53,758 nt of DNA from Candidatus Woesearchaeota archaeon (GTDB taxonomy: Archaea; Nanobdellota; Nanobdellia; Pacearchaeales; GW2011-AR1), in the NCBI GenBank assembly GCA_964482665.1, contig CAYZYW010000002.1:1-53758 (forward strand), read 5' to 3'. This document shows, in pieces, positions 7,581-45,324 of this stretch. Position 1 is the first letter of the stretch. Every line of letters starts with the position of its first letter. Under the pieces are notes generated by a model. That model saw nothing but the letters and a program-made list of their open reading frames with translations. It searched no databases and was not told the DNA's origin. Made by a program: the position numbers and the translations under genes.

Positions 7581-7620
7581 AAAAAGCAATATAATGATAA
7601 CTATAAAAATATTTAGGTAA

Positions 7621-7857: not shown

Positions 7858-7887
7858 TTGAATTTTAGATATTTCGAGTATAAAAAG

Positions 7888-7897
7888 CTTTATATAA
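7888..7897 (+). promoter_or_regulatory. TATA box (ctttatataa) upstream of rbcL
   Basis: About 34 nt before the ATG, with a GGTGA Shine-Dalgarno-like motif in between. Confidence 0.4.
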
Positions 7898-7926
7898 TTA
7901 AGAATCAAATTTTATTTGGGTGATAA

Positions 7927-9201
7927 ATGACAAAAATACATTATGATAGTTTTATAGATTTGAAATATAAGCCGAAGGCTACAGATCTTATATGTCAGTT
8001 TAAAATTACGCCAGCAAAAGGTTATACTTTTCGAGAAGTTTGTTCGATTACGGCGGGTGAAAGTTCGATTGGAACATGGACAGATTTGAAAACTATAAAT
8101 AAAAAAACACAATTAAAAATTACACCAAAAGTTTATTATTTAGATAAGAAAAATTTAAGATGTAGAATTGCATACCCACTCGATTTATTCGAATTAGGAA
8201 ATCTTCCTGAAATTTTGTCGTCGGTTGGTGGAAATATATATGGAATGAAATCAGTAAAAGGAATTTTATGGGAAGATATAAACATTCCAAAAAAAATGTT
8301 AAAAAGTTTTAAGGGACCTCAATTTGGAATTAAAGGATTAAGAAAATATTTGAAAGTTTACGGAAGGCCCTTAGTTGGAACAATTGTAAAACCTAAAGTT
8401 GGATTAAATGAAAAAGAGCACGCAAAAGTTGCATATGATTCATGGGTTGGAGGATGTGATGTTGTAAAAGATGATGAAAATTTAACTTCTCAACCATTCA
8501 ATAACTTCTACAAAAGAATTCCTTTAACATTAAAAGCCTGCAAAAAAGCTGAAAAGAAAACAGGTGAGAAAAAAGTTTACTTAGCAAATTGTACTGCATC
8601 TGTTGATGAAATGGTTAAACGAATTAAATTCGTAGAAAAAAATGGTGGTAATTATATTATGCTTGATATTTTAACATTAGGTTGGAGCGCATTACAAAAA
8701 GCTAGAGATGTGACCAAATTACCAATTCATGCACATAGGGCAGGTCATGCAATGTTTGATAGATCTCCAATTCATGGAATGACAATGGAAGTAATCGCGC
8801 AACTTGCAAGAATGGTTGGTGTTGATACATTGCATATTGGAACAGCTTATGGAAAAATGGTCGGAGGAAAAGATATGGTTTTACATATTGAAGAAGAAAT
8901 AGAATCTGAATTTACAACTCAAACAAAAGAATATTTAGCCCAAAAATGGCATGGAATGAAAACGGTTTTTGGAGTAGCTTCAGGTGGAGTACATCCAGGA
9001 ATGGTTGATAAAATTATGAAATTTATGGGCAACGATGTAGTAATTCAAGCAGGTGGTGGAGTTCACGGACACCCAGATGGAACAATCGCAGGAGCTATAG
9101 CAATGCGACAAGCAGTTGATGCAACATTACAAAAAATTAGTTTAAAAAAATATGCAAAAGATCATATTGAATTGAAAAAAGCATTAGACAAGTGGTTGTA
9201 A
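7927..9201 (+). CDS. rbcL: ribulose-1,5-bisphosphate carboxylase large subunit, form III (archaeal type)
   Basis: GTIVKPKVGL, GGCDVVKDDENL, HAHRAGHA and GGGVHGHP active-site motifs. 424 aa, with no small-subunit gene. Confidence 0.9.
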   Translation: MTKIHYDSFIDLKYKPKATDLICQFKITPAKGYTFREVCSITAGESSIGTWTDLKTINKKTQLKITPKVYYLDKKNLRCRIAYPLDLFELGNLPEILSSVGGNIYGMKSVKGILWEDINIPKKMLKSFKGPQFGIKGLRKYLKVYGRPLVGTIVKPKVGLNEKEHAKVAYDSWVGGCDVVKDDENLTSQPFNNFYKRIPLTLKACKKAEKKTGEKKVYLANCTASVDEMVKRIKFVEKNGGNYIMLDILTLGWSALQKARDVTKLPIHAHRAGHAMFDRSPIHGMTMEVIAQLARMVGVDTLHIGTAYGKMVGGKDMVLHIEEEIESEFTTQTKEYLAQKWHGMKTVFGVASGGVHPGMVDKIMKFMGNDVVIQAGGGVHGHPDGTIAGAIAMRQAVDATLQKISLKKYAKDHIELKKALDKWL

Positions 9202-9202
9202 A

Positions 9203-9922
9203 TTACTTTTCAAAAGTTTTCAAATAATCTTTTTCAACAAAATGTAATTTGCTTGGTATAATTATACAATAGGGTCCAAACATTCCTTGAAATTCTTCAA
9301 GTTCTTCAATATCTCTATAGACAATTGATCTTTTCTTTGTTCCAAGTGCTCGACATACTAATATTTTTTTTAATGAGATGTCTTCTTTTTTTGCAGCTTT
9401 TTTTAGTTGAAATATTGCGTCTTGAAAATCTAGTCCGATATCTATTAAAATTAAACTATGTGCTTTCATTGACATATTTTCATGAACGATTTTCATAAAA
9501 CTTGTTGGAGTAAAGCTTTTTTGCCATGTGGGCATACTTGCGATTTTTCCGAATTTGTAAAGTTGTAAACCTGTTTCAGCAACAGCGTCTAAAATTGATG
9601 CGTTATAAATTATTTTTGTTCGAACTTTTGAAAGTTTAGCTTCTTGTAGTAATGTTATATGTGTTGTTGCTGTTAATGGACTTCCGTATATTAAAAGTAC
9701 AACATCTTTTTTTGCAGCTTCATCTACAATAGAAAGATTTTCAACAAATTCTCTATTTGCAGGATAAATTTTTTTCCCTAAAACATCTTCAAGTTCTTGA
9801 TGGGTATATGGAAATTCAACAGTATAATTTTCAAGATAAATTTTTTTCGCACGTTTCACTACTTCTAAACCATATGTTGAAATTCCGTCAACATTTAAAC
9901 CTAATCCTATTAAGTATAACAT
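9203..9922 (-). CDS. dph5: diphthine synthase
   Basis: MLYLIGLGL N-terminus and tetrapyrrole-methylase-fold motifs typical of archaeal Dph5. Confidence 0.85.
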   Translation of the reverse strand: MLYLIGLGLNVDGISTYGLEVVKRAKKIYLENYTVEFPYTHQELEDVLGKKIYPANREFVENLSIVDEAAKKDVVLLIYGSPLTATTHITLLQEAKLSKVRTKIIYNASILDAVAETGLQLYKFGKIASMPTWQKSFTPTSFMKIVHENMSMKAHSLILIDIGLDFQDAIFQLKKAAKKEDISLKKILVCRALGTKKRSIVYRDIEELEEFQGMFGPYCIIIPSKLHFVEKDYLKTFEK

Positions 9923-9976
9923 AGAAAAAAATGGCTTGAGAGGTTTAATAGGTTTTTGGTTCGAAAATTTACAAAA

Positions 9977-9988
9977 CTTTTATAAAGG
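9977..9988 (+). promoter_or_regulatory. TATA box (cttttataaagg), centre about 27 nt upstream of the ATG at 10009
   Basis: Position and sequence match the window-wide promoter pattern. Confidence 0.5.
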
Positions 9989-10008
9989 TTTTTTTCTTGA
10001 AATAAAAC

Positions 10009-10989
10009 ATGGAAAATAAAGAGGTTCAAAAACAAGAAAATAATTCTGAGGAGTGCAATCCAGTTAATCCATTAAATAAGCATTTAGAAAAAGTAAAAAA
10101 TAATCCTTGGATGGCTTCGACTATAGTTTTAGCGATTGTTAGTTTGATTTTATTATTAAGTAGTTTTTCAGGTGGAGTTATTACAGGTGGAGTTATTTCA
10201 GAAGTAGATGCAAGCGAAATGCTTTTAGATTTTTATACAACAAGTGGAGCTCAGGGATTAGAGATTGGTTCAGTTGAAGAATTGAGTGGAGTTTATCAAG
10301 TTAATTTTTTATATAATGGTCAAGCTGTTCCAATGTTTGTGACAAAGGATGGTAAGTTAGCAGGTCAATTGACACCCTTGAGTGCTCCTGAAGTTCCAGC
10401 ACAACAACCAACTACAACAACTATTCCTAAAACAGATAAACCAAAGGCAGAATTATTTATTATGACACATTGTCCATATGGAACACAAGCTGAAAAAGGA
10501 TTTTTACCAATGATGAGATTAATGGAGAATATTGCAGATGTCAAAATTAGATTTGTTCATTACTTTATGCATGATCCTGAAGAAACTGAAACACCTAGAC
10601 AAGTTTGTATAAGAGAAGAGCAATCAGATAAATATTTAGATTATTTAGAATGTTTTTTAGGTGAAGGAGATTCTGAAGGTTGTTTGGTTAACGCAGCTAT
10701 AGACCAAGTTTCAATGAATAACTGTATTGATAATGGAAACGCAGAAAAATATTATAAAGAAGATTCAGTATTAAGTGAAACTTATGGAGTTCAGGGAAGT
10801 CCTACTTTAATTATTAATGGTGTTAAATCAAATGCCGGAAGAGATGCGGCTTCATATTTAGATGGTTTATGTAAGGCATATACAGATAGTTCAGTTCCAG
10901 TACAATGTGGTGAGAAATTATCAGACGCTGCACCAACGCCAATGTGGGGATGGGATGGAAGTGGTTCAAATTCAGATGCACAGTGTTAA
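10009..10989 (+). CDS. membrane-anchored thioredoxin-fold (DsbA-like) protein
   Basis: One N-terminal TM segment, a CPYG redox-like motif, several extra Cys, and GSPTLIING typical of thioredoxin-like folds. Confidence 0.55.
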   Translation: MENKEVQKQENNSEECNPVNPLNKHLEKVKNNPWMASTIVLAIVSLILLLSSFSGGVITGGVISEVDASEMLLDFYTTSGAQGLEIGSVEELSGVYQVNFLYNGQAVPMFVTKDGKLAGQLTPLSAPEVPAQQPTTTTIPKTDKPKAELFIMTHCPYGTQAEKGFLPMMRLMENIADVKIRFVHYFMHDPEETETPRQVCIREEQSDKYLDYLECFLGEGDSEGCLVNAAIDQVSMNNCIDNGNAEKYYKEDSVLSETYGVQGSPTLIINGVKSNAGRDAASYLDGLCKAYTDSSVPVQCGEKLSDAAPTPMWGWDGSGSNSDAQC

Positions 10990-11015
10990 TATAATATATT
11001 TCTAATCACAACAAT

Positions 11016-11025
11016 CTTTAAATAT
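11016..11025 (+). promoter_or_regulatory. TATA box (ctttaaatat) about 26 nt upstream of the ATG at 11046
   Basis: Position and sequence pattern. Confidence 0.45.
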
Positions 11026-11045
11026 AAATAAGTATTATAATTTAT

Positions 11046-11498
11046 ATGGAAGATTTAGAAAATAAATTAGATCAAGTAGAGCAAGATAAAAAGCAAATTT
11101 TAGAAGAAATAGATGAAAGAAATAAAGATAGGGAGATTTTATGTGGTGGGTGTAAAGGTTATCATAAAATTAAGGATCTTACGGCAATTCAATATTATTG
11201 GCATGTTTCTCCACATGGATGCACAGGGGGGGATTATTGGAGAGAGGGAGAGTTGATATTTGTTTGTCCTGAAAATGGTATGGTTAATAGGTTATTGTTC
11301 GATAACAATGATGTCCCATTTGAAGATAGAAAAATGTATAAGAATGATCCCGAAGAACAATTTAAAAGAAATTATAAAAAATTATTTTTGGAAGTTGTAG
11401 ATAATTTTGATGAAACAATTCATGGTAAATGGGTAAATAATTTTTATGTTGATAAAAATCGTGAAAAGTTTGGGCTTGTCGAAAAAATAAAAAAATAA
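11046..11498 (+). CDS. hypothetical Cys-containing protein
   Basis: 150-aa ORF with CGGC...HGC...CPENG. No family recognised. Confidence 0.5.
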   Translation: MEDLENKLDQVEQDKKQILEEIDERNKDREILCGGCKGYHKIKDLTAIQYYWHVSPHGCTGGDYWREGELIFVCPENGMVNRLLFDNNDVPFEDRKMYKNDPEEQFKRNYKKLFLEVVDNFDETIHGKWVNNFYVDKNREKFGLVEKIKK

Positions 11499-11505
11499 AA
11501 TTTAT

Positions 11506-12693
11506 TTATCTGGTAATATATTCAATTTCTTCGTTGCTTAATTTAAGTTCTCGATGAATTTTTGGATTTGATTTTAAGATTTGTTTTATTACGGGAAAAT
11601 CTTTCATTGCACGTTTTTTACTTATGTGAACCAAGGGTGCGTATTTCATACATATTGATTTTTTCTTTAATGTTTTCATATTGTTTAGCCAAATTTTTAA
11701 AATTCTTTCAGGGCGTTTATATGCTGTGAATCCTGGCTTTTGTTTAGATTTTGCAGTAGATATAGCATAACTTAGAAAAGCATTTTCATAAACCAAGAAT
11801 CTCCAATATTGTTTTTTGTAAATTCTACCTTTGAATCGATCTGCTCTTGCCACAGCTTCGTATGCTTTCATTAATTCTTCTTTGTCATACTCAAGAGGAA
11901 TATTTTCTTCAACCCATAACATTATTTCGTCTAATTGCATATTCACAGAATCATAAACTTTTAGAGTTTCATTTGTTGGTTTTGTTTTAAATACAATTTT
12001 AAGTGCGTTGAAAATATCTGTTTCTTTGTTTCTTTCAGATAATTCGATTTTTGATGGGTCATCCATACTTGCCGCTGTTTGTAGGTCATTTATTGCAGCA
12101 CGCAAGTCACCTTTTGCATTTATTGCGATTTTAGAAATTATATCAGTTTCAATAGATTTGTTTTCTTTTTTTAGGATTACATTTAAGACATTTTTTACAA
12201 TTGAATATTCAATATCTTTTAATTGTAAAAGTTCTACTTTTTTTCGTAGTGGACTTAGTTTCTTTTTCCAAATGTCGTTTGCCGTGATAATTATAGGATG
12301 CGATGAGCTTGGCAATAATGACATTAGTTCAGACAAACCTCCTCTATCAACAGCAGAGATTCCATCTACTTCATCAAGTAAGATAATTTTTTTAGTTTTT
12401 GTTAAAGATTTTTGTTCGATTGCAGGTCGTAAAATTTCATATAATTTTTTTTTGTTTCTCAAATCAGATGCGTTTAATTCAAATATTTCTGAATTTGTTT
12501 CTTTAGCGACAACATGAACCAATGTTGTTTTTCCTGTTCCGGGTGGTCCATGTAAAACAAGTGCTTTTTTTTTGGCGTATGAAAATTGGGTAACAAATGA
12601 TTTAATTTTAGTTATTGCAAAATCTTGTCCTTTTATTTCTAGAAAACTTTTTGGTCTATATTTTTCAACCCAATTAGATTTATTGTTGGTCAT
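11506..12693 (-). CDS. rfcL: replication factor C large subunit
   Basis: WVEKYRPKSF, GPPGTGKTT and DEVDG motifs. Lies directly downstream of rfcS. Confidence 0.85.
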   Translation of the reverse strand: MTNNKSNWVEKYRPKSFLEIKGQDFAITKIKSFVTQFSYAKKKALVLHGPPGTGKTTLVHVVAKETNSEIFELNASDLRNKKKLYEILRPAIEQKSLTKTKKIILLDEVDGISAVDRGGLSELMSLLPSSSHPIIITANDIWKKKLSPLRKKVELLQLKDIEYSIVKNVLNVILKKENKSIETDIISKIAINAKGDLRAAINDLQTAASMDDPSKIELSERNKETDIFNALKIVFKTKPTNETLKVYDSVNMQLDEIMLWVEENIPLEYDKEELMKAYEAVARADRFKGRIYKKQYWRFLVYENAFLSYAISTAKSKQKPGFTAYKRPERILKIWLNNMKTLKKKSICMKYAPLVHISKKRAMKDFPVIKQILKSNPKIHRELKLSNEEIEYITR

Positions 12694-12695
12694 TA

Positions 12696-13655
12696 TTATT
12701 CTTTTCCTAGTCCAGCCAATACAAAGCTAGCAAGTAAAGCTTGAAGTTGAATAAATGGATCTGATCCTTCTGTTATTCTAAATTCTGTTTCACCTGTTTT
12801 TTCTGTTAGTCGAACTTTTAATTCAGGTTCTATTGGAAGATTCCATATTTCTTTTTGAATAGATTTGACAACATCTTGCCCTGCTACACTTTCTTTTAGC
12901 ATTATATCTAAAAGTTTTTCTTTTGATTTTTGAAAATCTCCAGATAAAGCATAATCTAAAACAATTTTGATATCTTTTGGTTTTGTATTTGAAATAATTG
13001 TTGAGACAAGTTCGGGAGTTATTGTTAGTGAAATTGGTACGGTTGATTGTAAAATATTTATACATCTTCGACAATCACCCTCGCTTCCTTCGTAAAGTAT
13101 TTCCATAGCATTTGGAACAATTGTTAAGTTTTCTATTTGTGCAATTCTTTGAATAACTTGTTCGATTGCTTTTTTTTCTAAAAGTTTAAATCTGAAGATT
13201 GCGCAACGTGATTGAATAGGGTCGATGATTTTACTTGAATAATTACATGACATAATAAATCGACATGTTGCTGAATAGTTTTCCATTGTTCGTCTTAATG
13301 CTTGTTGAGCTTCGGGTGTTAGGGCGTCTGCTTCATCTAAGAAAATAACTTTGAATGGAACACTTCCTAAAGCTTTTGTTCGTGCGAAATTTTTAACTTT
13401 TTCTCGAACAACTTGGATTCCTCTTTCGTCTGATGCGTTTAATTCTAAATATGATTCTTTCCAGTTTTTTCCAAATAGTTCTTTTACAACAATTAATGCA
13501 AGTGTTGATTTTCCTGTTCCGGCTGGACCTGCAAATAAAAGGTGTGGAATGTTCATAGAATTTGTAAGTGCTTCAACTCTTTTTACAATTTCATCTTGAC
13601 CAACAAGGTCTTTAAATGTTGATGGCCTAAATTTTTCTGTCCAAATTTCGCTCAT
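12696..13655 (-). CDS. rfcS: replication factor C small subunit
   Basis: WTEKFRPSTF, GPAGTGKST, LDEADALT and SRC motifs. Confidence 0.9.
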   Translation of the reverse strand: MSEIWTEKFRPSTFKDLVGQDEIVKRVEALTNSMNIPHLLFAGPAGTGKSTLALIVVKELFGKNWKESYLELNASDERGIQVVREKVKNFARTKALGSVPFKVIFLDEADALTPEAQQALRRTMENYSATCRFIMSCNYSSKIIDPIQSRCAIFRFKLLEKKAIEQVIQRIAQIENLTIVPNAMEILYEGSEGDCRRCINILQSTVPISLTITPELVSTIISNTKPKDIKIVLDYALSGDFQKSKEKLLDIMLKESVAGQDVVKSIQKEIWNLPIEPELKVRLTEKTGETEFRITEGSDPFIQLQALLASFVLAGLGKE

Positions 13656-13737
13656 GGTATATTGAATTCCATTTTGCTTATAAAGATTTGGATACTCTAG
13701 TAGAGAATTACTTTAGGGTTATGAAAAAATGGAATTA

Positions 13738-13750
13738 AAGATTTAAATAT
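13738..13750 (+). promoter_or_regulatory. TATA box (aaagatttaaatat) about 26 nt upstream of the ATG at 13771
   Basis: Position and sequence pattern. Confidence 0.45.
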
Positions 13751-13770
13751 GAGTTTTTCATGAGGAGTAT

Positions 13771-14571
13771 ATGTATGAGGTGTTTTTTTTATTGCTTGCA
13801 GGTGTTGGTGCTGGAATTATTACAGGTTTAATTGGGGCGAGTGCGGTTATGATTTCGGTTCCAATTATGGTTATTTTTTTGGGGTATGATATTTTTCTTG
13901 CGATTGGATTGAGTTTGGGGATTGATGTGGTAGCTTCAATAATGGCTGCTCTGGTTTATAAAAAATATGATAATATTAATATTAGAATAGGGATTCATAT
14001 GTCTTTTTTTGCAATTATAGGTGTTTTAATTGGAACATCTGTTTCGTTTTATATCCCGAAGGCATTGTTAACTGGATTAACAGGTATAGCGATTTGTTTT
14101 TCAGGTTTGAATTTTATGACTAGAAAGATTAGAGATGAAATAGAGGATGTTGTTGAAGATTTGAAATTAGATTATAAGAATAAAAGGTATTTAGTTACGA
14201 TGTTTGCGGCTTTGATTGTTGGTTTTATTGGTGGGTCGTTTGGTGCAGGAGGTGGCTTGTCGATGTTGTTGATATTAACATTTGTTTTACATTTTAAAAT
14301 TCATAAAGCAATTGGGACATCTATTTTTGTTATGATATTTATTGCATTATCAGGAGCAGTAAGTCATTATGTTTTTTTACCTTTTCCTATATATGCATTA
14401 GTGATTGCATGCATAGGTGCAGTTGTTGGCTCAAAATATTCAGCGAAAATAGCGAATCTTTTGAGCGAGAAGCAACTTAATAAATTGGCAGGAGTTATTT
14501 TCTTTGCGTTAGGGTTGGCTTTGATGATTCAACAAGTATTTAGTAATGGATATTTGAATTATTTATTTTAA
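13771..14571 (+). CDS. TSUP/TauE-SafE family membrane transporter
   Basis: About 8 TM segments with duplicated glycine-rich GAGGG-type motifs. Confidence 0.7.
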   Translation: MYEVFFLLLAGVGAGIITGLIGASAVMISVPIMVIFLGYDIFLAIGLSLGIDVVASIMAALVYKKYDNINIRIGIHMSFFAIIGVLIGTSVSFYIPKALLTGLTGIAICFSGLNFMTRKIRDEIEDVVEDLKLDYKNKRYLVTMFAALIVGFIGGSFGAGGGLSMLLILTFVLHFKIHKAIGTSIFVMIFIALSGAVSHYVFLPFPIYALVIACIGAVVGSKYSAKIANLLSEKQLNKLAGVIFFALGLALMIQQVFSNGYLNYLF

Positions 14572-22552: not shown

Positions 22553-22602
22553 AGAGTATTTAGATTAATTAGTTTTATAAACCTTTCTTGTTTTTAATGT
22601 TA

Positions 22603-22779
22603 ATGGTAATTAAAGTTGATAAAAATACATGTATTGGATGTGGGCTTTGCGAGTCTATTTGCGAGGATGTTTTTGAAGTTGATAATGATGGGAAAGCACA
22701 AGTGAAAAAACAAAGTGATGATCCATGTGTTAATGAAGCAGTTGAGCAATGTCCAGTTGAAGCAATAAGCAAAAGTTAA
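22603..22779 (+). CDS. fdx: small ferredoxin (single Fe-S cluster type)
   Basis: CIGCGLCESIC ... CPVEAI. The start at ATG 22603 (or 22597) is preferred over the TTG at 22588. Confidence 0.8.
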   Translation: MVIKVDKNTCIGCGLCESICEDVFEVDNDGKAQVKKQSDDPCVNEAVEQCPVEAISKS

Positions 22780-22968
22780 GAAACCACTGGTTTCTTAATA
22801 ACTTCCTCATGTTCATGTTGGGCAGCATCTTTTTGTTGATAATCTTATAGAAAAAATAAATTTTTTCTATGTTTCTGTTGTCCAGGTGATGCCACATAGG
22901 CCCGTCGAGTGGTCCTTTTTCGTGTGCTGAATAAGTTAGGTTTATGGGTGTTGGGTAAGAAATGATTT
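22776..22968 (+). repeat. GC-rich hairpin element, copy 1 (carries an extra 10-bp hairpin insertion)
   Basis: Aligns to the copies at 43416 and 45115. It starts at the TTAA that contains the fdx stop codon. Confidence 0.75.
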
Positions 22969-29857: not shown

Positions 29858-31456
29858 TTAATCCTGTCCTGTTTGTTCTAGATAATCAGAATAATTTCCA
29901 GGATAACTTGAAATTTTTTTATCTTTGATTTCCATAATTCGTGTTGCTATTTTGTCTACAAAATATCTGTCGTGAGATACAAAAACTATTGTTCCTTGGA
30001 ATTTTTGTAAAGCTTTTTCTAATGAGTCAACTAGGTGAATATCTAAATTATTTGTTGGTTCGTCTAAAATTAAAACATTATTTTTTTCTATACTAATTCT
30101 TAAAATATTTAATCTACCTCTTTCTCCACCTGAAAGATATTTTATTTTTTTATTGAAAACATCTTGATGAAAACCGTATTTTTTTAGCATTGATATTAAT
30201 TGATTTTCATTTTTTCCAGTTTTATCCATCATAAAATCAATTATTGTTTTTTCTTTATTAACATCTTCAAGCTCTTGATCAAAATATCCAATTTTAATAT
30301 TTTTTCTTTGTGAAACACTTCCTTCACTTGGATTCATTTTACCAATTAGCATTTTTAAAAAAGTAGATTTTCCCATTCCATTTTCACCAAGGATACAAAC
30401 CTTTTCCCCAAAATCAATTTCGGAATTTACTTTTTTGAATAAAAGCTTATCGTCAAATTTTTTTTCAACATCTTCCATTCTAAAAATATTACAATTATGT
30501 AAACCTTCATTGTTAAAATATATTTTAATATTTCTTATAAAATCAAATGGATTTTCTACGTCGTCTAATTTTTTTGCATCAGCTTCAAGGCGTTTTGCAA
30601 CTATCACCATTTTTTTACTTGTTGACCATTGTCTTTTTTGTTTTGCTGATTCTAATAATCTTTTCTTTTCTTTTTTAACATTTGTATAATTTCTTTCTAA
30701 ATTTTTTAGATAATCTTCTTTTCGTTCTGCATATTTTTCAAATTTATATTTCCATTCTTTTATTCTTTTATTCTCTAAATCCCAAACTTTTTCAGATACT
30801 TGATTTAAAAAATATCTATCATGTGAAATTACTATTAAACTTTCTATATTTTTATTTATATAATCTTCAAGCCATTTACGTGTTCCTAAATCTAAATTGT
30901 TTGTTGGCTCATCTAATAAATATAGATCTGCTTTTTTTGAAAGACATTCTGCTAATCTTAATTTTGTTTTTTGTCCGCCGCTTAAATTTTTTATTTTTTG
31001 ATTTAAAGCTTCTTTGTCGATCCCTAAAATATCTAATAATTTTTGAATATTTTCTTGTTCAATATCAAAAGACGAATCTGTTAATAATAAATTATATTTA
31101 TCCATAAGTGAATCAAATTGAGCTTCGTTTTCAAAGATGTCCGGATTCCCAATTTCTTTTTCAAGTTTTATTTTCATTTTTTCTAATTGTTTCTTTTTGT
31201 CTTCTAGATAGCTTCCAAAAGTTTTATCTAAATTTGCAAAATTTTGATCTTGTTCCATTAAACTTATTTTCATGTCCGAAACCATAATACGTCCTTGAAA
31301 ATTTTCTTTACCAGATAGGCAATTGAAAAAAGTTGTTTTTCCAGATCCGTTTTTTCCAATGAATGCGATTTTGTCTTTTGAGTGAAAAATTAAATTTACA
31401 TTTTCAAATAAGTTTTCTCTTTCAAATCCTTTGGATAATTCATGGATGTTTATCAT
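29858..31456 (-). CDS. ABC-F family ATPase (two ABC domains, no TM domain)
   Basis: Two Walker A motifs (GKNGSGKTT, GENGMGKST), two LSGG signatures, ISHDRYFLN and VSHDRYFVD, an inter-domain linker, and GNYSDYLE. Confidence 0.85.
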   Translation of the reverse strand: MINIHELSKGFERENLFENVNLIFHSKDKIAFIGKNGSGKTTFFNCLSGKENFQGRIMVSDMKISLMEQDQNFANLDKTFGSYLEDKKKQLEKMKIKLEKEIGNPDIFENEAQFDSLMDKYNLLLTDSSFDIEQENIQKLLDILGIDKEALNQKIKNLSGGQKTKLRLAECLSKKADLYLLDEPTNNLDLGTRKWLEDYINKNIESLIVISHDRYFLNQVSEKVWDLENKRIKEWKYKFEKYAERKEDYLKNLERNYTNVKKEKKRLLESAKQKRQWSTSKKMVIVAKRLEADAKKLDDVENPFDFIRNIKIYFNNEGLHNCNIFRMEDVEKKFDDKLLFKKVNSEIDFGEKVCILGENGMGKSTFLKMLIGKMNPSEGSVSQRKNIKIGYFDQELEDVNKEKTIIDFMMDKTGKNENQLISMLKKYGFHQDVFNKKIKYLSGGERGRLNILRISIEKNNVLILDEPTNNLDIHLVDSLEKALQKFQGTIVFVSHDRYFVDKIATRIMEIKDKKISSYPGNYSDYLEQTGQD

Positions 31457-31487
31457 TGTTCTTGTAGAATATTAAGAAATTGGGGTT

Positions 31488-31630
31488 TTAAAGGGTGTGG
31501 GGCACCAAGGTTCCCCTTACAATAACCCCTCCTTCTCTGTTCCGGCTAGTGGTATCTTTTAATTGCCTCCGATGGATACCACGAGAGGTTGTCAAGCAAC
31601 CTTTTTATGTGTGCTGTATAAGTTAGAGTT
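31488..31630 (+). repeat. GC-rich hairpin element, divergent copy 4
   Basis: Same architecture as copies 1-3 (TTAA, hairpin, CCTCC tract, hairpin ggttg-tcaag-caacc, T5). The tail TGTGTGCTGTATAAGTTAGAGTT is nearly identical to the other copies. Confidence 0.6.
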
Positions 31631-31647
31631 ATGGATGATTTGGTTAT

Positions 31648-31670
31648 ATCCTACTGAGATTTTAACTCAG
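31648..31670 (-). repeat. 23-nt exact duplicate of the tRNA-Ile T-arm and 3' acceptor end (att-like)
   Basis: atcctactgagattttaactcag is identical to 33909-33931. Confidence 0.85.
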
Positions 31671-32563: not shown

Positions 32564-33022
32564 TCACCAAAGTTTTTTCATCATAACTTTATCTTTTGAT
32601 TTAGATTTTCCAATTACCCAATATCCTGACGGCATAAGGTGATAACCTCTTTTTTTATAAAAATTAAGTGCAGATTTTGTAGAATATAGTCTTACTTGTC
32701 TTATCTTTTTCGAACGAGCATAATTTTCAATAAAATCCATTAATTGAGCCCCGATACCTTTTCCAACCTCAGAGCTCTTGATAAATAATCCTGCAATTTT
32801 GTCTCCACTCAAATCAACAGTTCCCAATAAAGTATTATCTTCCCATGCACAAAATATATTTTTATCTTTCATTTTATTAATAGTTCCCTGTGTAGAATTT
32901 TCATTTATTAAAAATTGAATGAATACCTTAGGATAACCATTTTTATTTATTTCTCTAATGGTCTTTCTTCTTAATGCACTAATTTTTTTCGCATCTTTTT
33001 TTCTTGCTTTTCTAATTATCAT
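32564..33022 (-). CDS. GNAT family N-acetyltransferase
   Basis: GKGIGAQLMDFIENYA...FYKKRGY acetyl-CoA-binding motif. Confidence 0.8.
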   Translation of the reverse strand: MIIRKARKKDAKKISALRRKTIREINKNGYPKVFIQFLINENSTQGTINKMKDKNIFCAWEDNTLLGTVDLSGDKIAGLFIKSSEVGKGIGAQLMDFIENYARSKKIRQVRLYSTKSALNFYKKRGYHLMPSGYWVIGKSKSKDKVMMKKLW

Positions 33023-33126: not shown

Positions 33127-33651
33127 TTATTTTACAACTGCCCAATACATATTATCTAAATATTTTCCATTTTTAACAAATTCTTTCCGAAGGATGCCTT
33201 CAAATTTATATCCTGCTTTTTCAAGAACTCTTGCAGAGGCTTTATTGGATGTTCTACACCTACCAACTAATCTTTTCAACTTATATTTTTTAAACACATA
33301 CTTAGTAAATAATTTGAGAGATTTAGACATTAGACCTTTACTCCTGAAATCTGGATGCATACAATAACTAATGATCGCCTTATGTTCAGCATATTTTTTA
33401 TTTAAATCGTGAACAACTATATATCCAGCAAATTTTCCTTTAACATCAATTACAAATGTCTCTTCATGAGGTTTTTTTGTTTTAAGATTTACAATTTCCT
33501 TTCGAATTATAGTTTTAATTAAATGAACAGATATAGAAGTGGTCATAGAATTTTCTATTGATAACGGATCAGTTTCACATTCAACATATTTTTCAGCATC
33601 AGATAATTTTATTGGTCTTAAAATAAATCCTTTACTTTTAATAATCACCAT
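33127..33651 (-). CDS. GNAT family N-acetyltransferase (RimJ/RimL-like)
   Basis: RSKGLMSKSL...NKASARVLEKAGYKFEGILR signature. Confidence 0.8.
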   Translation of the reverse strand: MVIIKSKGFILRPIKLSDAEKYVECETDPLSIENSMTTSISVHLIKTIIRKEIVNLKTKKPHEETFVIDVKGKFAGYIVVHDLNKKYAEHKAIISYCMHPDFRSKGLMSKSLKLFTKYVFKKYKLKRLVGRCRTSNKASARVLEKAGYKFEGILRKEFVKNGKYLDNMYWAVVK

Positions 33652-33723
33652 ATTAAGACAGAAACATTTGTATTATATAAATATGATTAAAATAAGTTTC
33701 TTATCTGGTTATCACCAAGTAAA

Positions 33724-33906
33724 ATGATCCTACTTGCTCGCACATCGCAAAATCTTCTTTAAATTCACTTCGTTCATTTATTCGAAATTTTGGAAATGTT
33801 CGGATTTTAACAGGATTGAATTTTCAATTCAAGAAAGTTGTCGGAATTTGCAAAGCATAAAATCTCAGAATTAAATAATAGAGTTGAATCTATTCAACTC
33901 TAGATA
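33724..33906 (-). repeat. tRNA-Ile trailer module A (10-bp hairpin plus about 150 nt homologous to module B), ending in an 11-nt duplicate of the tRNA-Ile 3' end
   Basis: Hairpin tagagttgaa-tcta-ttcaactcta at 33879-33902. atgatcctact occurs at both 33724-33734 and 33906-33916. About 70% identity by eye to 34226-34400. Confidence 0.6.
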
Positions 33907-34035
33907 TGATCCTACTGAGATTTTAACTCAGGACCTCTGGCTCTCTTAGATTCTTTGGGGATTCCAAAAGATAACAACCCTGACGGATTGCATTCATATA
34001 AGACCAGCGCTCTGAACAGACTGAGCTATAGGATC
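33907..34035 (-). tRNA. tRNA-Ile (anticodon UAU) with a 54-nt intron at the canonical 37/38 position
   Basis: Hand-folded cloverleaf: acceptor GATCCTA/TAGGATC, D stem GCTC/GAGC, anticodon stem CTGGT/GCCAG, loop CT-TAT-A[intron]A, T arm CTGAG-TTAAAAT-CTCAG. Confidence 0.8.
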
Positions 34036-34046
34036 TTTGTTTGTAT

Positions 34047-34112
34047 TCCTATAGTGAAGCCCGTAAGACTGTGGTTTACGTTAATAGGCCATTCCTGTGG
34101 GAAGCTATAGGA
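34047..34112 (-). other. 66-nt structured element closed by an 8-bp stem (tcctatag/ctatagga) just upstream of tRNA-Ile
   Basis: Terminal inverted repeat plus internal hairpins cgtaa/ttacg and ttcc/ggaa. Its minus-strand 5' arm repeats the tRNA-Ile 5' end (ATCCTATAGCT). Confidence 0.45.
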
Positions 34113-34179
34113 TTTAATAATTTTTCAAGTATATTCAGTTATTTAAAGTTTTTTAGTATTGAAAAGTACAAAAAGATAT

Positions 34180-34224
34180 AGTATATGATTCAATCCCTAT
34201 TTTGAACCATATACTAACGCTCTC
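34180..34224 (-). repeat. 14-bp hairpin with loop AATAGGGA plus a degenerate copy of the tRNA-Glu 3' end
   Basis: Paralog of 34401-34445. Four compensatory stem changes, and the single mismatch is a G-U pair only on the minus strand. Confidence 0.65.
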
Positions 34225-34225
34225 T

Positions 34226-34438
34226 TCTTTTCACATGTCGTAAAATTTTTTATAAATTCGTTATACTCATTTATCTAAAAATTTCAGAAATGTTTGGACC
34301 TTGAAAAGGTTTTTGTGATCCTTGGGGTTATTCGAAATGGGTTGAATTAAAAATTCAATAAATCTTTTTGAATTTGTAGAGTGTAGAATATCAGAGATAT
34401 AGAGTATAACTCAATCCCTATTTTGAGTTACACTCTAA
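34226..34438 (-). repeat. tRNA-Glu trailer module B (homologous to module A) including the 14-bp hairpin at 34401-34436
   Basis: Aligned by eye to 33737-33878. The hairpin lies directly 3' of tRNA-Glu. Confidence 0.6.
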
Positions 34439-34585
34439 CGCCCTCACCGAGATTCGAACTCGGGTCACCGCCTATCTCCAAAGAAAGGCTGCATTTAGAT
34501 GCTAGACTTCCACTCTCCTCGAGATTTCATCACCTCTTCTTCAATTTTGAGAGGGCGGCATACTTGGCCTCTGTACTATGAGGGC
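34439..34585 (-). tRNA. tRNA-Glu (anticodon CUC) with an intron of about 74 nt at 37/38
   Basis: Hand-folded: acceptor GCCCTCA/TGAGGGC, D stem GTAC/GTAT, anticodon stem CCGCC/GGCGG, loop CT-CTC-A[intron]A, T arm CCGAG-TTCGAAT-CTCGG. Confidence 0.8.
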
Positions 34586-41037: not shown

Positions 41038-41685
41038 ATGAGAAAAATGGAAAAGCCGTGGTGGGTTCCGCATCCAAATAGAATTAGTGCTGTAGCTTTG
41101 CTTTGTACGGGGGCTGGTGTTGGAATTGTTTATGGAGCAGATAATTGTGTTTCAGAATTGGGAGGATTGGCTTTGATAATTGCGGGAGATATTGGAGATA
41201 AGGTTGATGGATTTGTTGCTAAGAAATATGAAAATATGAAAACAAAAGAGGGTGCTAAGTTGGATCCATTATTTGATAAAGGAAAAAATCTTTTGGTTGG
41301 AGGATATTGTGTTGCAAAAGAATGTTTGAAAGAAAATGTGATTTTTCCAGCATCGATGATTGCGAATTGGGGTGTTAATTATTATTCTCAAATGAAGCGT
41401 GGTAATATTGTTAATCAAATTGAGGAAGCTACAGGTGCAATTATATTTCCTGAAAATTGTAAAGTTGATAATGATAAAAATTCTACAGATCGAGCAAATA
41501 GTTTTGGCAGAGTTAAGGCGTTAGGTCAAGTTTTGGCTGCAGATACATATATTCTTTATGATATTTTGCAAAGTCATAATATTATTAATACAAATACAAC
41601 AGAATGGGTGCCATATGTTTTGGCAAGTATTCTGGGAGTTTCTGCAGGATGGGGTTATTTGGGAGTAAAGAAAAGAATTAATTAA
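41038..41685 (+). CDS. CDP-alcohol phosphatidyltransferase family membrane protein
   Basis: DKVDGFVAK..(9)..GAKLDPLFD fits the D-G-x2-A-R...G-x3-D-x3-D motif. Several TM segments. Confidence 0.55.
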   Translation: MRKMEKPWWVPHPNRISAVALLCTGAGVGIVYGADNCVSELGGLALIIAGDIGDKVDGFVAKKYENMKTKEGAKLDPLFDKGKNLLVGGYCVAKECLKENVIFPASMIANWGVNYYSQMKRGNIVNQIEEATGAIIFPENCKVDNDKNSTDRANSFGRVKALGQVLAADTYILYDILQSHNIINTNTTEWVPYVLASILGVSAGWGYLGVKKRIN

Positions 41686-41723
41686 TTCATTAATTATATA
41701 AATTAGGTTTTGTATTTTTAACT

Positions 41724-42419
41724 ATGAGAGGTGTTTTAAGTAAAAAGGGTTCGCATGTTGGAATGATTTTGTCGTTTTTGATTTTCGTGACTTTTATTGC
41801 TTTTCTCTATAGTGCGATTGCTCCCGTTACAAAAATGCAAAAAGATAAGCAGGTTGTTTTAGATTTTTTAAAAATGGCTTTAGTTGAAAATTCGTCAGGC
41901 GATTTAACAATTGTTACAGTTTCGCTTGGGAATGAAAAATGTGGAGAATTAAATGTTGATGAAATAGATGTTAATAATTTAAATATTATTGTAAAGGATA
42001 GTGATGGAGGAATTTTAGATTTTAAAAAGAGTGGTAATAATGTTAAATTTTCAAATGAAGCGTTTAAGGTTTATTTTTCAAAGGATATTGAAAGTTTAAG
42101 GGAGGGCTATTTTGATAGTGGTAGTGTTAAATGTAAAAAAATTGATCCAAGTTTAGTTAAAACAGAAACAGAGGTTTTCGAATCAAAAATAGGTGATATG
42201 TTATATATGTATGAAAATAATTATGAGGTTTTAAAAGAAGGAATGAATGTTCCAGCGGGAAGTGATTTTGGCTTTGAGTTTGTAGATACTTTAGGTGATT
42301 CAATTAAAACTGAAGATAAAAATATTAGAACAGATATTTATGCAGAGGAAATTTCGTTTTTGTATATTGATTCAGAGGCAAATATTTTGCAGGGCTCGAT
42401 GATTATAAAAGTTTGGTAG
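41724..42419 (+). CDS. pilin-like protein
   Basis: MRGVLSKKGSHVGMILSFLIFVTFIAFLY N-terminus. Confidence 0.5.
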   Translation: MRGVLSKKGSHVGMILSFLIFVTFIAFLYSAIAPVTKMQKDKQVVLDFLKMALVENSSGDLTIVTVSLGNEKCGELNVDEIDVNNLNIIVKDSDGGILDFKKSGNNVKFSNEAFKVYFSKDIESLREGYFDSGSVKCKKIDPSLVKTETEVFESKIGDMLYMYENNYEVLKEGMNVPAGSDFGFEFVDTLGDSIKTEDKNIRTDIYAEEISFLYIDSEANILQGSMIIKVW

Positions 42420-42442: not shown

Positions 42443-42961
42443 ATGAGTATGGAAAATAAAATTTTAGTATATCATGGAACAAGTGTAGAGAATGGAATTA
42501 AAATTGCAAGAGATGGTAAAATACTTTCACCTTATGAGCAAAAATTAAAAGTAATCAAGAAAGATTTTCCCAAAAAAGGTTTTTTTGAGAAATATTCAAA
42601 TGGACAATCAATTGAAGATGTTGCAATGTATTGGGCATCTGGTGGTTTCCATGAACGAGAAATTGAATTTAGAGTAAAATGTTTCTCAATTTCATTGGAT
42701 AAAAAAGAAGCTTTTCGCTATGCAAAAAGATATGAAAATATGAATGGGGGATTGGTTTTTGGGGTTGAGATTAATGCTGAAATTTTAGCGGGCTTTAAGG
42801 GAGATCATCCCTCTATAAGGTTTGTTTCTAAAAAACTAAGTCTTAATGGATTAAAGGAAGTTTATCTTACCTCAAGAGCTTTAAGTTTAAAGATGCAAAT
42901 AAAGGCGGAATTTCAAAAATATAATTTAAATTTTTTTAAATTCATTAATTATATAAATTAG
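42443..42961 (+). CDS. hypothetical protein, possible divergent ADP-ribosyltransferase (H-Y-E-like) fold
   Basis: Start at the ATG after GGAG. ILVYHGTSVENGIKIARDGKIL, AMYWASGGF and GVEINAE loosely match PARP/Tpt1-type motifs. Confidence 0.3.
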   Translation: MSMENKILVYHGTSVENGIKIARDGKILSPYEQKLKVIKKDFPKKGFFEKYSNGQSIEDVAMYWASGGFHEREIEFRVKCFSISLDKKEAFRYAKRYENMNGGLVFGVEINAEILAGFKGDHPSIRFVSKKLSLNGLKEVYLTSRALSLKMQIKAEFQKYNLNFFKFINYIN

Positions 42962-42978
42962 TTTTTGTTATTATTTTT

Positions 42979-43419
42979 ATGATGAGGAAAAATAAGAGAG
43001 GTTGGATAAAAATTATAGAGGCGTTTATTGCGATTTTGTTGATTGCGGGTGTGTTGCTTGTTGTTATAGATAAGGGTTATATTAGTAAAGGTGGTGTTGG
43101 TAAAAAAATATATGAAGCTGAATTGTCAATACTTAGAGAAATTGAATTGGATGATAAATTAAGAAGTGAAATTTTAGAAATAGATGAGGATAAGCTTCCG
43201 AAAAAAGGTCCTCCAGGAGTTGTTCTTAAATTAGATATTCGAACTCCAGATTATCTTGAATGTGTTTCAATGGTTTGTGCAACAGATGTTATTTGTTTGG
43301 CTGATGTATATCATAATATTCCTTTGGATAAAGATGTATATTCAAAGGCGGTTCCGATTTTTGCAGAGCTTGATAAATATTCTCCACGACAATTGAAGTT
43401 GTTTTGCTGGACTGATTAA
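42979..43419 (+). CDS. pilin-like protein
   Basis: MMRKNKRGWIKIIEAFIAILLIAGVLLVV N-terminus. Confidence 0.55.
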   Translation: MMRKNKRGWIKIIEAFIAILLIAGVLLVVIDKGYISKGGVGKKIYEAELSILREIELDDKLRSEILEIDEDKLPKKGPPGVVLKLDIRTPDYLECVSMVCATDVICLADVYHNIPLDKDVYSKAVPIFAELDKYSPRQLKLFCWTD

Positions 43420-43635
43420 GAAACCCCTGGTTTCTTAATAACCTAAAGGTCACAAGCAACTTCCTCACGTTCATGTTGGGCAGCATCTTTCTTGCACTTT
43501 GGGATACTACATGGGCCCGTCTAGCGGTCCTTTTTCGTGTGCTGAATAAGTTAGGTTGTTGATGACAGGTAATAAATGGTTAACGAAAGGGAAGAAAAAA
43601 TTTTATGGGGTAGGTAGATTATTTGAGGGGGAATG
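43416..43635 (+). repeat. GC-rich hairpin element, copy 2 (upstream of rtcB)
   Basis: Aligns to copies 1 and 3. Its TTAA contains the stop codon of the pilin-like gene. Confidence 0.75.
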
Positions 43636-43640
43636 TAGAG

Positions 43641-43650
43641 TATTTTAAAA
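43641..43650 (+). promoter_or_regulatory. TATA box (tattttaaaa) about 27 nt upstream of the rtcB ATG
   Basis: Position and sequence pattern. Confidence 0.45.
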
Positions 43651-43672
43651 ACTACTTCATCTTCATTTTTTT

Positions 43673-45118
43673 ATGGAAGTTAAAAAAATATCTGAGAATA
43701 TATATGAAGTTTCTAAAGAAGGAAATATGAAAGTTCCTGGAAGGATTTATGCTAGTGAGAAGCTTATGGATTTTATTAAAAAAGATAAAACTTTGACGCA
43801 GGTTTCAAATATTGCGTGTTTACCTGGAATTTTGAAGCATTCTATTGCTTTGGCTGATGCGCATCAGGGTTATGGTTTTTCGATTGGAGGAGTTGCGGCG
43901 TTTGATTTGAATGAGGGTGTAATATCTCCAGGTGGAGTTGGGTATGATATTAATTGTTCAGTTCGGTTATTGAAAACAAATTTGAAAAAAGAAGATATTG
44001 AAAAAAATAAAAATGAAATTTTAGAAAGTCTTTTTAGGAAAATTCCATCAGGTGTTGGTCGAGGTAGTGGGTTTCAAATTACAAAGGATGAGTTAAATAA
44101 ACTTTTGAAAGGCGGGGCGAAGTATATGGTCGAGAAGGGTTATGGAGTTAAAGATGATTATAAAAATACAGAGGCTGAAGGATGTTTGAATTCAGATGTT
44201 TCAAAAGTTTCAGAGCGTGCGATAAAAAGAGGAATTGGTCAAATTGGAACATTGGGTGCGGGGAATCATTTTTTAGAAATTCAATATGTTGATGAAATTT
44301 TTGATAAAGAAAAGGCAAAAGTTTTTGGAATTAAAGAGGGACAAGTTATGATAATGGTTCATTGTGGTTCGCGTGGATTGGGTCATCAGGTTGCTTCAGA
44401 TTATATTAAAAAAATGGAAGTTGAATATGGCTTTGAGGATTTGCCAGATAGGGAATTGATTAATGCTCCGATTAAAAGCGAGTTGGGTAAAGATTATTTT
44501 TTGGCGATGGGGGCTGCTGCGAATTTTGCGTTTGCGAATAAACAATTGATTACGCATTGGATTAGAGAAGATTTGAAATTTAGTTTCCCGGATATTAAAA
44601 TTGATGTTGTTTATGATGTGTGTCATAATATTGCGAAGTTTGAGGATCATTTGCTTGATACCCCCAAGGGGCACGAGAACCTGCAAGCAGGTGGTAAATT
44701 AAAAAAGGTTTTGGTTCATAGAAAGGGGGCGACGAGCAGTTTTGGTTCGGGGAGTAAATATGTTTCAGAAAAATATCGTGAGATTGGTCAGCCTGTTTTG
44801 ATTCCGGGTTCAATGGGTACATCATCGTATTTATTGGTTGGAACAAAGAAGGCAGAAGAATTGACATTCGCATCAACGGTTCATGGTGCGGGTAGAATTC
44901 ATAGTAGGGCAAGTGCAATGAAGTTGAAAACAGGTGAACAGGTTAAAGAAGATTTGTGTTGCAAGGGTATTGAGGTTAGGGCTGGAAGTATGAAAAGTTT
45001 GGCGCAGGAAAGTCCAGAGGCGTATAAGGATATTGATGAAGTTATAAAGACGGTTTGTGATTTAGGTTTAAATAAAAAAGTTGCACGATTGAGGCCTTTG
45101 GGTGTTATCAAAGGTTAA
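43673..45118 (+). CDS. rtcB: RNA-splicing ligase RtcB
   Basis: ADAHQGYGFSIGG, GYDINC, GAGNHFLE, HCGSRGLGHQ, HNIA, and the C-terminal ..GVIKG. Confidence 0.9.
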   Translation: MEVKKISENIYEVSKEGNMKVPGRIYASEKLMDFIKKDKTLTQVSNIACLPGILKHSIALADAHQGYGFSIGGVAAFDLNEGVISPGGVGYDINCSVRLLKTNLKKEDIEKNKNEILESLFRKIPSGVGRGSGFQITKDELNKLLKGGAKYMVEKGYGVKDDYKNTEAEGCLNSDVSKVSERAIKRGIGQIGTLGAGNHFLEIQYVDEIFDKEKAKVFGIKEGQVMIMVHCGSRGLGHQVASDYIKKMEVEYGFEDLPDRELINAPIKSELGKDYFLAMGAAANFAFANKQLITHWIREDLKFSFPDIKIDVVYDVCHNIAKFEDHLLDTPKGHENLQAGGKLKKVLVHRKGATSSFGSGSKYVSEKYREIGQPVLIPGSMGTSSYLLVGTKKAEELTFASTVHGAGRIHSRASAMKLKTGEQVKEDLCCKGIEVRAGSMKSLAQESPEAYKDIDEVIKTVCDLGLNKKVARLRPLGVIKG

Positions 45119-45324
45119 GAAACCCCTGGTTTCTTTATAACTTCCTCACATTCATGCTGGGCAGCATCTTTATTGCACTTTGGGATGCCACATTGGTCCG
45201 TCTAGCGGCCCTTTTGCGTGTGCTGTATAAGTTAGGGTTTTGGAGGTTGGGTAAGAGATGATTGATAAAAGGGAAAGAAATTAATTGGTTTTTGCGGGGT
45301 TGGTAAGAGATGGGTTGAAGAATG
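45115..45324 (+). repeat. GC-rich hairpin element, copy 3 (downstream of rtcB)
   Basis: Aligns to copies 1 and 2. Its TTAA contains the rtcB stop codon. Confidence 0.75.

Follow-up and report, generated by a model that had tools for sequence, protein, structure and literature searches.

A lineage-restricted family of short, TTAA-anchored repeats at stop codons of a Pacearchaeota-like archaeon

We analyzed the whole 53.8-kb contig CAYZYW010000002.1 (53,758 nt; hereafter the window) of assembly GCA_964482665.1, which is listed as a Candidatus Woesearchaeota archaeon. The contig has a G+C content of 30% and bears the marks of a DPANN (Pacearchaeota-like) archaeon, among them genes for replication factor C (RFC) subunits, a form III RuBisCO, a phosphoenolpyruvate (PEP)-utilizing enzyme, aminoacyl-tRNA synthetases, a type IV pilus ATPase and the RNA ligase RtcB, whose best relatives (approximately 72% identical) are labeled Pacearchaeota or Nanoarchaeota. 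Two tRNA genes with long introns point in the same direction. The rtcB gene is bracketed by two direct copies, A and B, of a short element on the plus strand (43416-43635 and 45115-45324). They are 85% identical over 228 alignment columns, a similarity far beyond chance, and differ mainly in the 3' tail, which is looser, and in one insertion of 18 nt (43440-43457) that copy A carries. Most of the parts listed in the initial annotation were recovered in both copies: a leading TTAA, the perfect hairpin AAGAAACC-CCT-GGTTTCTT, the sequence CTTCCTCAC, a hairpin GG(C/T)CCG-TCTA-GCGG(T/C)CC followed by a T-run, the near-invariant block GTGTGCTG(A/T)ATAAGTTAG and, behind this core, a looser tail rich in G, A and T. 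The description as a GC-rich island was also appropriate, the core containing 45-52% G+C compared to 30% across the window, and the stop codons of both upstream genes, which encode a 146-aa pilin-like protein and RtcB, indeed fall within the first 4 nt of the element. A coding function of the element was considered and rejected: in copy A an in-frame stop follows the TAA, indels shift the frame between copies, and the open reading frames (ORFs) running over the element on the minus strand are merely overlaps with neighboring genes.

A search for further copies, as had been suggested, revealed a family of at least nine members of about 125-220 nt each, four of them in the window (all on the plus strand) and five on other contigs. 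Within the window, copies C and D were found by repeat and pattern searches, and an 18-mer of the core occurs four times where 0.1 occurrences are expected, with no antisense match in the window. The outside copies (L020, L021, L033, L035 and L036, the last being the same as L034) were obtained by scanning public metagenome contigs for this 18-mer, and they reside on four contigs from two Joint Genome Institute (JGI) samples. These contigs have nothing but the element in common with the window. Because they show the same G+C content of 30% and one of them is 100% identical between the two samples, they probably represent other parts of the same population's genome. The remaining 18-mer matches in metagenome contigs, GTDB genomes and IMG/VR lacked the rest of the element and were discarded as chance; GTDB representative genomes and IMG/VR yielded chance matches or nothing, as did IMG/VR when searched with two other motifs of the element. 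A covariance model (R1) of the shared 3' half, comprising 118 positions and 24 pairs, recovered all nine copies with E values from 1e-22 to 1e-35 in the 131 kb searched and disclosed no additional copy there, in particular none without the 18-mer.

The copies fall into variants that are defined by insertions. Copies A and L035 are 94% identical without a single gap and have the 18-nt insertion in common, while their upstream genes are unrelated and their flanks dissimilar. As this variant occurs at two unlinked loci, the unit must have been copied from place to place. Copies D and L021 share another, G/C-rich 5' module, and copy C contains an AT-rich insertion of approximately 45 nt (about 22833-22880) in the loop of the helix H3 described below. 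We take such indel-defined subfamilies at unlinked loci as the signature of copy-and-paste spread. The orientation of the copies was uniform in each contig harboring more than one of them (4/4, 2/2 and 2/2), and this includes copy D, which is anti-oriented to its neighbors.

All nine copies open with TTAAGAAA, i.e., TTAA followed by GAAA, and in six of them a co-oriented gene upstream terminates at the TAA of this motif. The gene ahead of L036 has a TAA of its own directly before the TTAA; in L035 the upstream ORF runs seven codons into the element and ends at a TAA on the 3' side of the palindrome TTAAGAAACC...GGTTTCTTAA, which offers TAA in two of three frames. Eight of the nine copies are thus located directly behind a co-oriented gene, copy D being the only exception. 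The genes preceding the copies are unrelated to each other; they encode a ferredoxin, the pilin-like protein, RtcB, a Rad50/SbcC-like ATPase, a DnaE-type polymerase, an M50 peptidase, a DUF424 protein and an unknown protein. The frequency of TTAA is 13 per kb, and the 24 sites of this sequence at stop codons are outnumbered by 87 intergenic ones. Given these numbers, the placement of six of nine copies at stop codons is an enrichment over intergenic TTAA, with P values between 2e-4 and 5e-3 depending on how orientations are counted. We found no duplication of TTAA as known from piggyBac-type targets, and no consistent TTAA where the similarity ends at the 3' side, an end that is imprecisely defined.

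In the nearest relatives, rtcB is packed between a gene for archease (or another gene) and a gene encoding a PKD-domain protein. The relatives' RtcB ends at the same residue (...VKG*), and an AT-rich spacer of approximately 40 nt with the next promoter follows. Model R1 did not reveal any copy in 119 kb around rtcB on seven relatives' contigs, nor did these contigs contain analogous repeats. This comparison indicates that this lineage gained the element, and that it went in precisely 3' of the stop codon that rtcB had ancestrally. Because the stop codon is ancestral, the TTAA at rtcB, or at least its TAA, is host sequence.

With 481 aa, RtcB of the window (43673-45118) is longer than its counterparts in nearly all relatives (469-473 aa; L041-L047). 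Archease is encoded adjacent to or near rtcB in the relatives examined, but not beside rtcB in this window. The pilus/T2SSE cluster is inverted as compared to the relatives, and the downstream gene order PKD-GTPase-OapB-OapC is kept.

The alignment of the nine copies yielded a branched fold composed of five helices. H1 joins CCUCAC with GUUAGG, H2 joins GGCA with UGCU of the 18-mer, H3 joins GCAUCU with GGAUGC and has a loop varying in sequence and length, and H4 joins CAC with GUG. H5 consists of GG.CCGU and GCGG.CC and is followed by at least four U residues in all copies. According to this prediction, the 18-mer provides the 3' strands of H4, H2 and H1. The proportion of paired cells amounts to 96.8%, compared to 30-43% when the partners are slid, and double changes affect five pairs, compared to 0.9 in shuffled alignments, with most of the signal coming from copies D and L020. 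In copy D the H2 pairing is kept because its three changes in the 5' strand are transitions opposite U or G. The 5' hairpin (P1) exists as a structure also in D and L021, where its sequence is different. On the sense strand, the 96.8% pairing includes 33 G.U cells, whereas the complement reaches 82.9%; we infer that the conserved fold belongs to the sense strand, either as RNA or as single-stranded DNA.

The plus strand had already been proposed as the folded one in the initial annotation, on the grounds that a T/C difference in a 5-bp hairpin ATG(T/C)T-GGGC-AGCAT stays paired only on this strand. The strand was correct, but not the premise: copies D, L021, L035 and L036 read CCGG(C/T)T at this place, and the segment takes part in the long-range helices H2 and H3. 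The C/T difference of the third hairpin is a mismatched position in copies A and B alike. Folding energies gave no signal: neither strand, nor the whole unit of approximately 220 nt, was more stable than shuffled sequences, the z values lying between -1.6 and +0.9. A comparison with Rfam, using the gathering threshold for the whole window and E<=10 for copies A and D, gave no match for the element, only noise and tRNAs elsewhere. Two further structures were rejected. Pairing of the C-poor tail with the C/U-rich 5' segments (e.g., CCUCAC-GUGRGG), proposed by RNAalifold on five long copies, showed a positive covariation term together with broken pairs. C/D-box and H/ACA RNAs were dismissed because the GAUGC/CUGA and ACA motifs are not conserved (CUGU in B and D; no ACA in D and L020). 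Positions of the copies and their parts are compiled in Table 1.

Table 1. Positions of the repeat copies, their parts and rtcB in the window
Feature	Position	Strand	Description	Score or support
Copy C	22776..~22970	+	Ferredoxin gene 22588-22779 terminates at the TAA of TTAA; 18-mer at 22922-22939; short tail	112.1 bits
Copy D	31472..31647	+	Divergent; larger G/C-rich 5' module; 18-mer at 31609-31626	91.2 bits, E 3e-22
Copy A	43416..43635	+	Full unit, long-tailed; 18-nt insertion shared with L035	Covariance model 130.3 bits, E 4e-33
TTAA junction of copy A	43416..43419	+	Pilin-like gene 42979-43419 terminates at this TAA	
5' hairpin P1 of copy A	43418..43436	+	AAGAAACC-CCT-GGTTTCTT; 11-bp palindrome with flanking bases	
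H2 5' strand and hairpin H3 of copy A	43479..43507	+	H2 5' strand GGCA at 43479-43482; H3 with variable loop	H3: 2 pairs with double changes
H3 arms of copy A	43483-43488 with 43502-43507	+	GCAUCU with GGAUAC	
GC hairpin H5 and T-run of copy A	43514..43535	+	H5 at 43514-43530; T-run at 43531-43535	3 pairs with double changes, from copy D
Invariant 18-mer of copy A	43537..43554	+	GTGTGCTGAATAAGTTAG; predicted 3' strands of H4, H2 and H1	
Tail of copy A	43555..43635	+	C-poor, G/A/T-rich (GGTAATAAATGG, GGGAAGAAA, TTTTATGGGGT, GGGGGAATG); gradual decay of similarity	
rtcB	43673..45118	+	481 aa; bracketed by copies A and B	
Copy B	45115..45324	+	Full unit	136.6 bits
Parts of copy B	45116-45118; 45117-45135; 45195-45211; 45218-45235		TAA of TTAA (rtcB stop codon); P1; H5; 18-mer	
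Tail of copy B			Two GGTAAGAGATG units	

Past the 18-mer, the copies continue with a G/A/T-rich tail that is nearly free of C and contains reiterated GGTAAGAGATGG and GGGAAGAA units. In D and L020 the similarity to other copies fades out after approximately 20 nt and in C after 35 nt; it extends over 60-100 nt in copies A, B, L021, L033 and L036. The longest tails (A, B and L036) stop near GRGGGRAATG, close to the end coordinates given in the initial annotation. Neither a terminal inverted repeat nor a flanking duplication is common to the copies, and an inverted-repeat search around four of them gave only the internal 5' palindrome. A MITE (miniature inverted-repeat transposable element), one of the categories proposed initially, is therefore not at hand, since such elements are characterized by terminal inverted repeats akin to those of a transposon and, usually, by a target-site duplication.

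In copy D the tail is cut off at approximately 31647, and 15 nt separate its other end from the start codon of the divergently oriented ABC-F gene 29858-31456. The truncation is caused by the first copy of an exact 23-nt direct repeat (31648-31670 and 33909-33931), whose second copy forms the 3' terminus (acceptor and T arm, minus strand) of an intron-bearing tRNA gene at 33907-34035. The two 23-nt sequences bracket 2.26 kb containing genes for two GNAT acetyltransferases (32564-33022 and 33127-33651, both minus) and small ORFs, with no integrase. The pair looks like the attachment-site (att) footprint of an element integrated at the 3' end of a tRNA gene, or like its remnant. Both copies of the subfamily with the G/C-rich 5' module, L021 and D, have a convergent tRNA gene or fragment downstream, namely tRNA-Phe (5664-5735, plus) after approximately 130 nt in L021 and a tRNA 3' fragment after 22 nt in D; with only two cases, this may be coincidence.

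The repeats form a lineage-restricted family of short interspersed units that is best explained, in our judgment with about even confidence, as a non-autonomous, strand-specific mobile element, which may no longer be active. Such a unit would insert directly 3' of TTAA without duplicating it, making use of hairpins on one DNA strand, broadly as IS200/IS605/PATE (PATE for palindrome-associated transposable element) or REP elements do, and the enzyme would be supplied in trans. The spacers of this genome measure 36 nt at the median, the element-bearing ones being among the longest in the window, and promoters are expected approximately 30 nt before the mostly leaderless starts, as exemplified by TTTTAAAA, which resides about 31-38 nt ahead of the rtcB ATG. 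In a co-directional spacer, the only tolerated insertion point would accordingly lie between the stop codon and the next promoter, that is, because of the short spacers and the position of the promoters, within the few bases after the stop. A TAA stop codon preceded by T would constitute such a TTAA site, and insertion into the other strand at the TTAA of a stop codon would fall inside the gene. This filter, along with the damage done by insertions into the other strand, would therefore be able to account for stop anchoring and co-orientation without invoking function. Once inserted, the unit would be transcribed as the 3' untranslated region (UTR) of the preceding gene, where the GC hairpin and the U-run would probably act as a transcript terminator or 3'-end stabilizer. 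A secondary benefit of this kind may help to explain why helices and 18-mer have been kept in the diverged copy D. In this copy the subfamily insertion GGGGTTTTAAAGGG puts a TATA-like box approximately 30 nt upstream of the divergent ABC-F start, and copy D was perhaps tolerated because it supplied this box to the ABC-F gene.

PATEs and other non-autonomous elements derived from IS200/IS605 were defined in Haloquadratum walsbyi (PMC3119063), and an element of IS200/IS605 type was the second possibility raised in the initial annotation. Several properties agree with this assignment: the units are too small for a coding gene, show no terminal inverted repeats and have a fixed tetranucleotide, here TTAA in nine of nine copies, abutting their 5' end with no recognizable duplication (PMC3119063). 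Moreover, they form hairpins on one strand, are uniformly oriented in each contig, have been copied between unlinked loci of a single lineage, and occur in multiple heterogeneous copies with subfamilies and internal indels in an archaeal genome. Other properties do not agree. The 5' hairpin (AAGAAACC/GGTTTCTT) and the 3' hairpin (GGNCCGU/GCGGNCC) are unrelated, whereas the palindromes of a PATE resemble each other and those of IS605-type transposons; the 5' hairpin begins as early as nt 1-3, with the TTAA inside it, whereas that of a PATE lies some 20-40 nt inside (PMC3119063). Instead of a sharp terminal oligonucleotide at the 3' end, the element has its highest conservation in the internal 18-mer, behind which the C-poor tail decays.

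These unrelated hairpins, the position of the 5' hairpin at the very end of the element and the blurred 3' boundary are unlike the characterized ends of IS200/IS605 elements (PMC3119063) and count against a mobile element, as do the following observations. Scans with Pfam of approximately 50 ORFs of the window and 20 ORFs of the other loci did not reveal any transposase, TnpB/IscB, integrase or reverse transcriptase. Likewise, the suggested search for tnpA, tnpB or iscB genes carrying the ends of the element gave no result: among approximately 70 ORFs on 100 kb of this population there was no element with tnpA (Y1) or tnpB and related ends, i.e., no IS605-type transposon that could be the cognate one. 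The metagenome matches to the 18-mer comprised short copies only and no autonomous long version. Copy D has retained the 18-mer intact, while its remainder is only about 70-79% identical, which looks more like a constraint at the level of the host than like the neutral decay of a dead transposon. The invariance of the 18-mer is itself partly due to the way of sampling, because it was the exact 18-mer that led to five of the nine copies; independent support for its conservation comes from copy D and from the fact that model R1 found no copy without it. Finally, mobility is deduced from paralogues, all of which may stem from one population. A mobile element is the best reading available, but the unit falls outside the definition of IS200/IS605 elements and PATEs.

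The main rival explanation regards the unit as a cis-acting RNA module of the 3' UTR that is selected by the host, ends transcription, insulates neighboring genes or protects the 3' ends of mRNAs, and persists through its usefulness. We hold this to be possible but, on the whole, rather doubtful. The position of eight copies directly behind co-oriented genes would suit such a module, as would the pairing kept on the sense strand with many G.U pairs and the retention of 18-mer and helices in the diverged copy D. On the level of sequence, all nine copies exhibit the anatomy of a terminator, a GC-rich hairpin with compensatory changes and at least four T residues behind it, and their locations, ahead of the promoter of the following gene in A and C and between genes that converge in B, L020 and L021, are ones at which an insulator or terminator would be of use. 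The module would, however, be confined to this lineage, whose relatives manage with spacers of approximately 40 nt, and even in the window the element follows a small minority of genes (4 of about 62). T-runs are plentiful at 30% G+C, so that a special terminator seems needless, and terminator-like sites were not more frequent than in shuffled sequences, a count of no informative value in an archaeon. Simple termination at the T-run is also difficult to reconcile with the location of the most conserved block after the T-run and of its predicted partner before it. Lastly, copy D has no co-oriented upstream gene, and the folding energies are no better than those of shuffled sequences.

An unlikely explanation would combine elements of both. 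The family might represent an undescribed type of single-strand, hairpin-dependent mobile DNA or RNA-level module that specifically recognizes TTAA at translation stops, is moved by an enzyme unrelated to known IS200/IS605 transposases, and has also been domesticated by its ultra-compact DPANN host to terminate or insulate transcripts as a stop-anchored part of their 3' UTRs. If so, the internal 18-mer and the TTAAGAAA end would be recognition sites of a protein.

That the copies are independently transcribed small RNA (sRNA) genes appears quite improbable. They would act in trans or as guides, e.g., as omega-RNAs of TnpB/IscB proteins encoded elsewhere, with the variable H3 loop or the flank as specificity region. 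The core is indeed conserved and structured on one strand, the H3 loop differs in sequence and length among the copies, and copy D is located where it would need its own promoter. PATE-like elements have, moreover, been reported to encode often omega-RNAs used in trans (PMC10055086). A conserved archaeal TATA/BRE-like box at a fixed position was, however, not found, and L021 lacks the AATAA segment of the other copies. Behind the conserved block the copies resemble one another instead of carrying locus-specific sequence, which leaves no guide-like flank. An omega-RNA was rejected on the same ground and because neither tnpB nor iscB is adjacent to a copy or present among the ORFs scanned and HEARO or related Rfam families gave no match. 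Moreover, the 18-mer has no antisense match in the window and the element none in Rfam.

A very small probability remains for the attC sites of an integron, either as a CALIN (cluster of attC sites lacking an integron integrase) or as single attC sites, with rtcB and the pilin-like gene as cassettes. The units resemble attC sites in being placed directly 3' of ORFs, in their size of about 100-130 nt and in forming a sequence family specific to the genome; integrons and CALINs have been reported in Nanoarchaeota, and attC sites are more alike within than between genomes (PMC9668308). Their 3' block ends with GTTAGG(Y), similar to the R' core GTTRRRY, and the upstream CCTCAC is partly complementary to it. 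The R'-like GTTAGGK, however, fits GTTRRRY in some copies only, and the R''-like box reads TCCTCAC (TTCTCTG in D), i.e., CAC or CTG where the AAC of RYYYAAC is required, its central position being a C/T mismatch. Furthermore, attC sites fold and recombine as the bottom strand, whereas here the top (sense) strand is the better paired one (96.8% vs. 82.9%), and the similarity extends 45-100 nt beyond the R'-like box. The preceding genes are housekeeping genes in conserved synteny, rtcB keeping its ancestral neighborhood, and neither an array nor, among the ORFs scanned, intI was found. This interpretation is largely refuted.

The first idea of the initial annotation, that the RtcB ligase has in this element an RNA partner or regulator comparable to the Y RNA-like RNAs of bacterial rsr-rtcB operons, retains practically no credibility despite the bracketing of rtcB by two copies and is refuted by the distribution of the copies, since seven of nine are located at unrelated genes away from rtcB (copy D, for instance, beside the ABC-F gene), the rtcB loci of relatives are devoid of the element, no Y RNA or YrlA match was obtained from Rfam even at E<=10, and a Ro/TROVE protein was not detected in the window scans. 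The rtcB gene is a bystander and not a functional partner of the element.

Short, structured, lineage-specific intergenic repeats are well known from bacteria, where families such as REP/BIME, ERIC/IRU, Correia/NEMIS, RUP and bcr1 are often found just past stop codons. These repeats are co-transcribed with the flanking mRNAs and can provide terminators, stabilizers or stop codons; most of them are long imperfect palindromes or possess terminal inverted repeats with TA or other target duplications. The element described here is unlike them in its asymmetry, its branched core, its anchoring to TTAA at a stop codon and its DPANN host. It is, in other words, a small structured interspersed repeat, a familiar kind of object, in an unusual host, and the literature searched contained no comparable repeat family in DPANN archaea.

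DPANN genomes are very small and densely packed. A repeat that now numbers at least nine copies and is placed at stop codons would show, for a genome whose spacers measure 36 nt, how selection confines mobile DNA to one tolerated niche. Such DNA can provide stop codons and 3'-UTR structure, possibly terminators and, as in copy D, perhaps a promoter. The family also calls for some caution, because GC-rich islands in AT-rich genomes need not be dedicated genes for non-coding RNAs and adjacency to a gene such as rtcB can be coincidence. At present, it is a lineage-specific curiosity; the mobilizing enzyme, if found, could define a new TTAA-specific and strand-specific transposition system.

On the contig of L033, the repeat copy sits behind the stop codon of a gene for a 1051-aa bacterial-type DnaE/Pol III alpha protein (PHP, DNA_pol3_alpha, finger and HHH_6 domains). 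This gene directly follows an archaeal PolD cluster, which encodes the DP1 small subunit, an AP endonuclease 2/UvdE-like protein and the DP2 large subunit; the region is located at 5617-14152 on the minus strand.

The intron-bearing tRNA gene mentioned above (33907-34035, minus) and a second one at 34439-34585 (minus) contain introns of approximately 55 and 75 nt, respectively. The Rfam tRNA model alone detected them (55.2 and 45.9 bits), while ARAGORN reported no tRNA in the window, and they occupy its longest non-coding stretch (33651-34578). The same stretch harbors a 51-nt direct repeat (34174-34224 and 34395-34445; 78% identical), with a long hairpin TAGTATATGATTCAA...TTGAACCATATACTA in either copy. 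The copies are located between the two tRNA genes in one case and against the 3' end of the second tRNA gene in the other; over the second copy of the repeat, Rfam gave a weak match to ohsC below threshold (29.8 bits compared to a gathering score of 50).

Another direct repeat has copies of 44 nt at 41684-41727 and 42939-42982 that are 84% identical and of the form AATTCATTAATTATATAAATTAG...TTTTTATGA; they are situated immediately upstream of two of the small genes that follow one another ahead of copy A. It is probably the duplicated promoter/start region of paralogous pilin-like genes.

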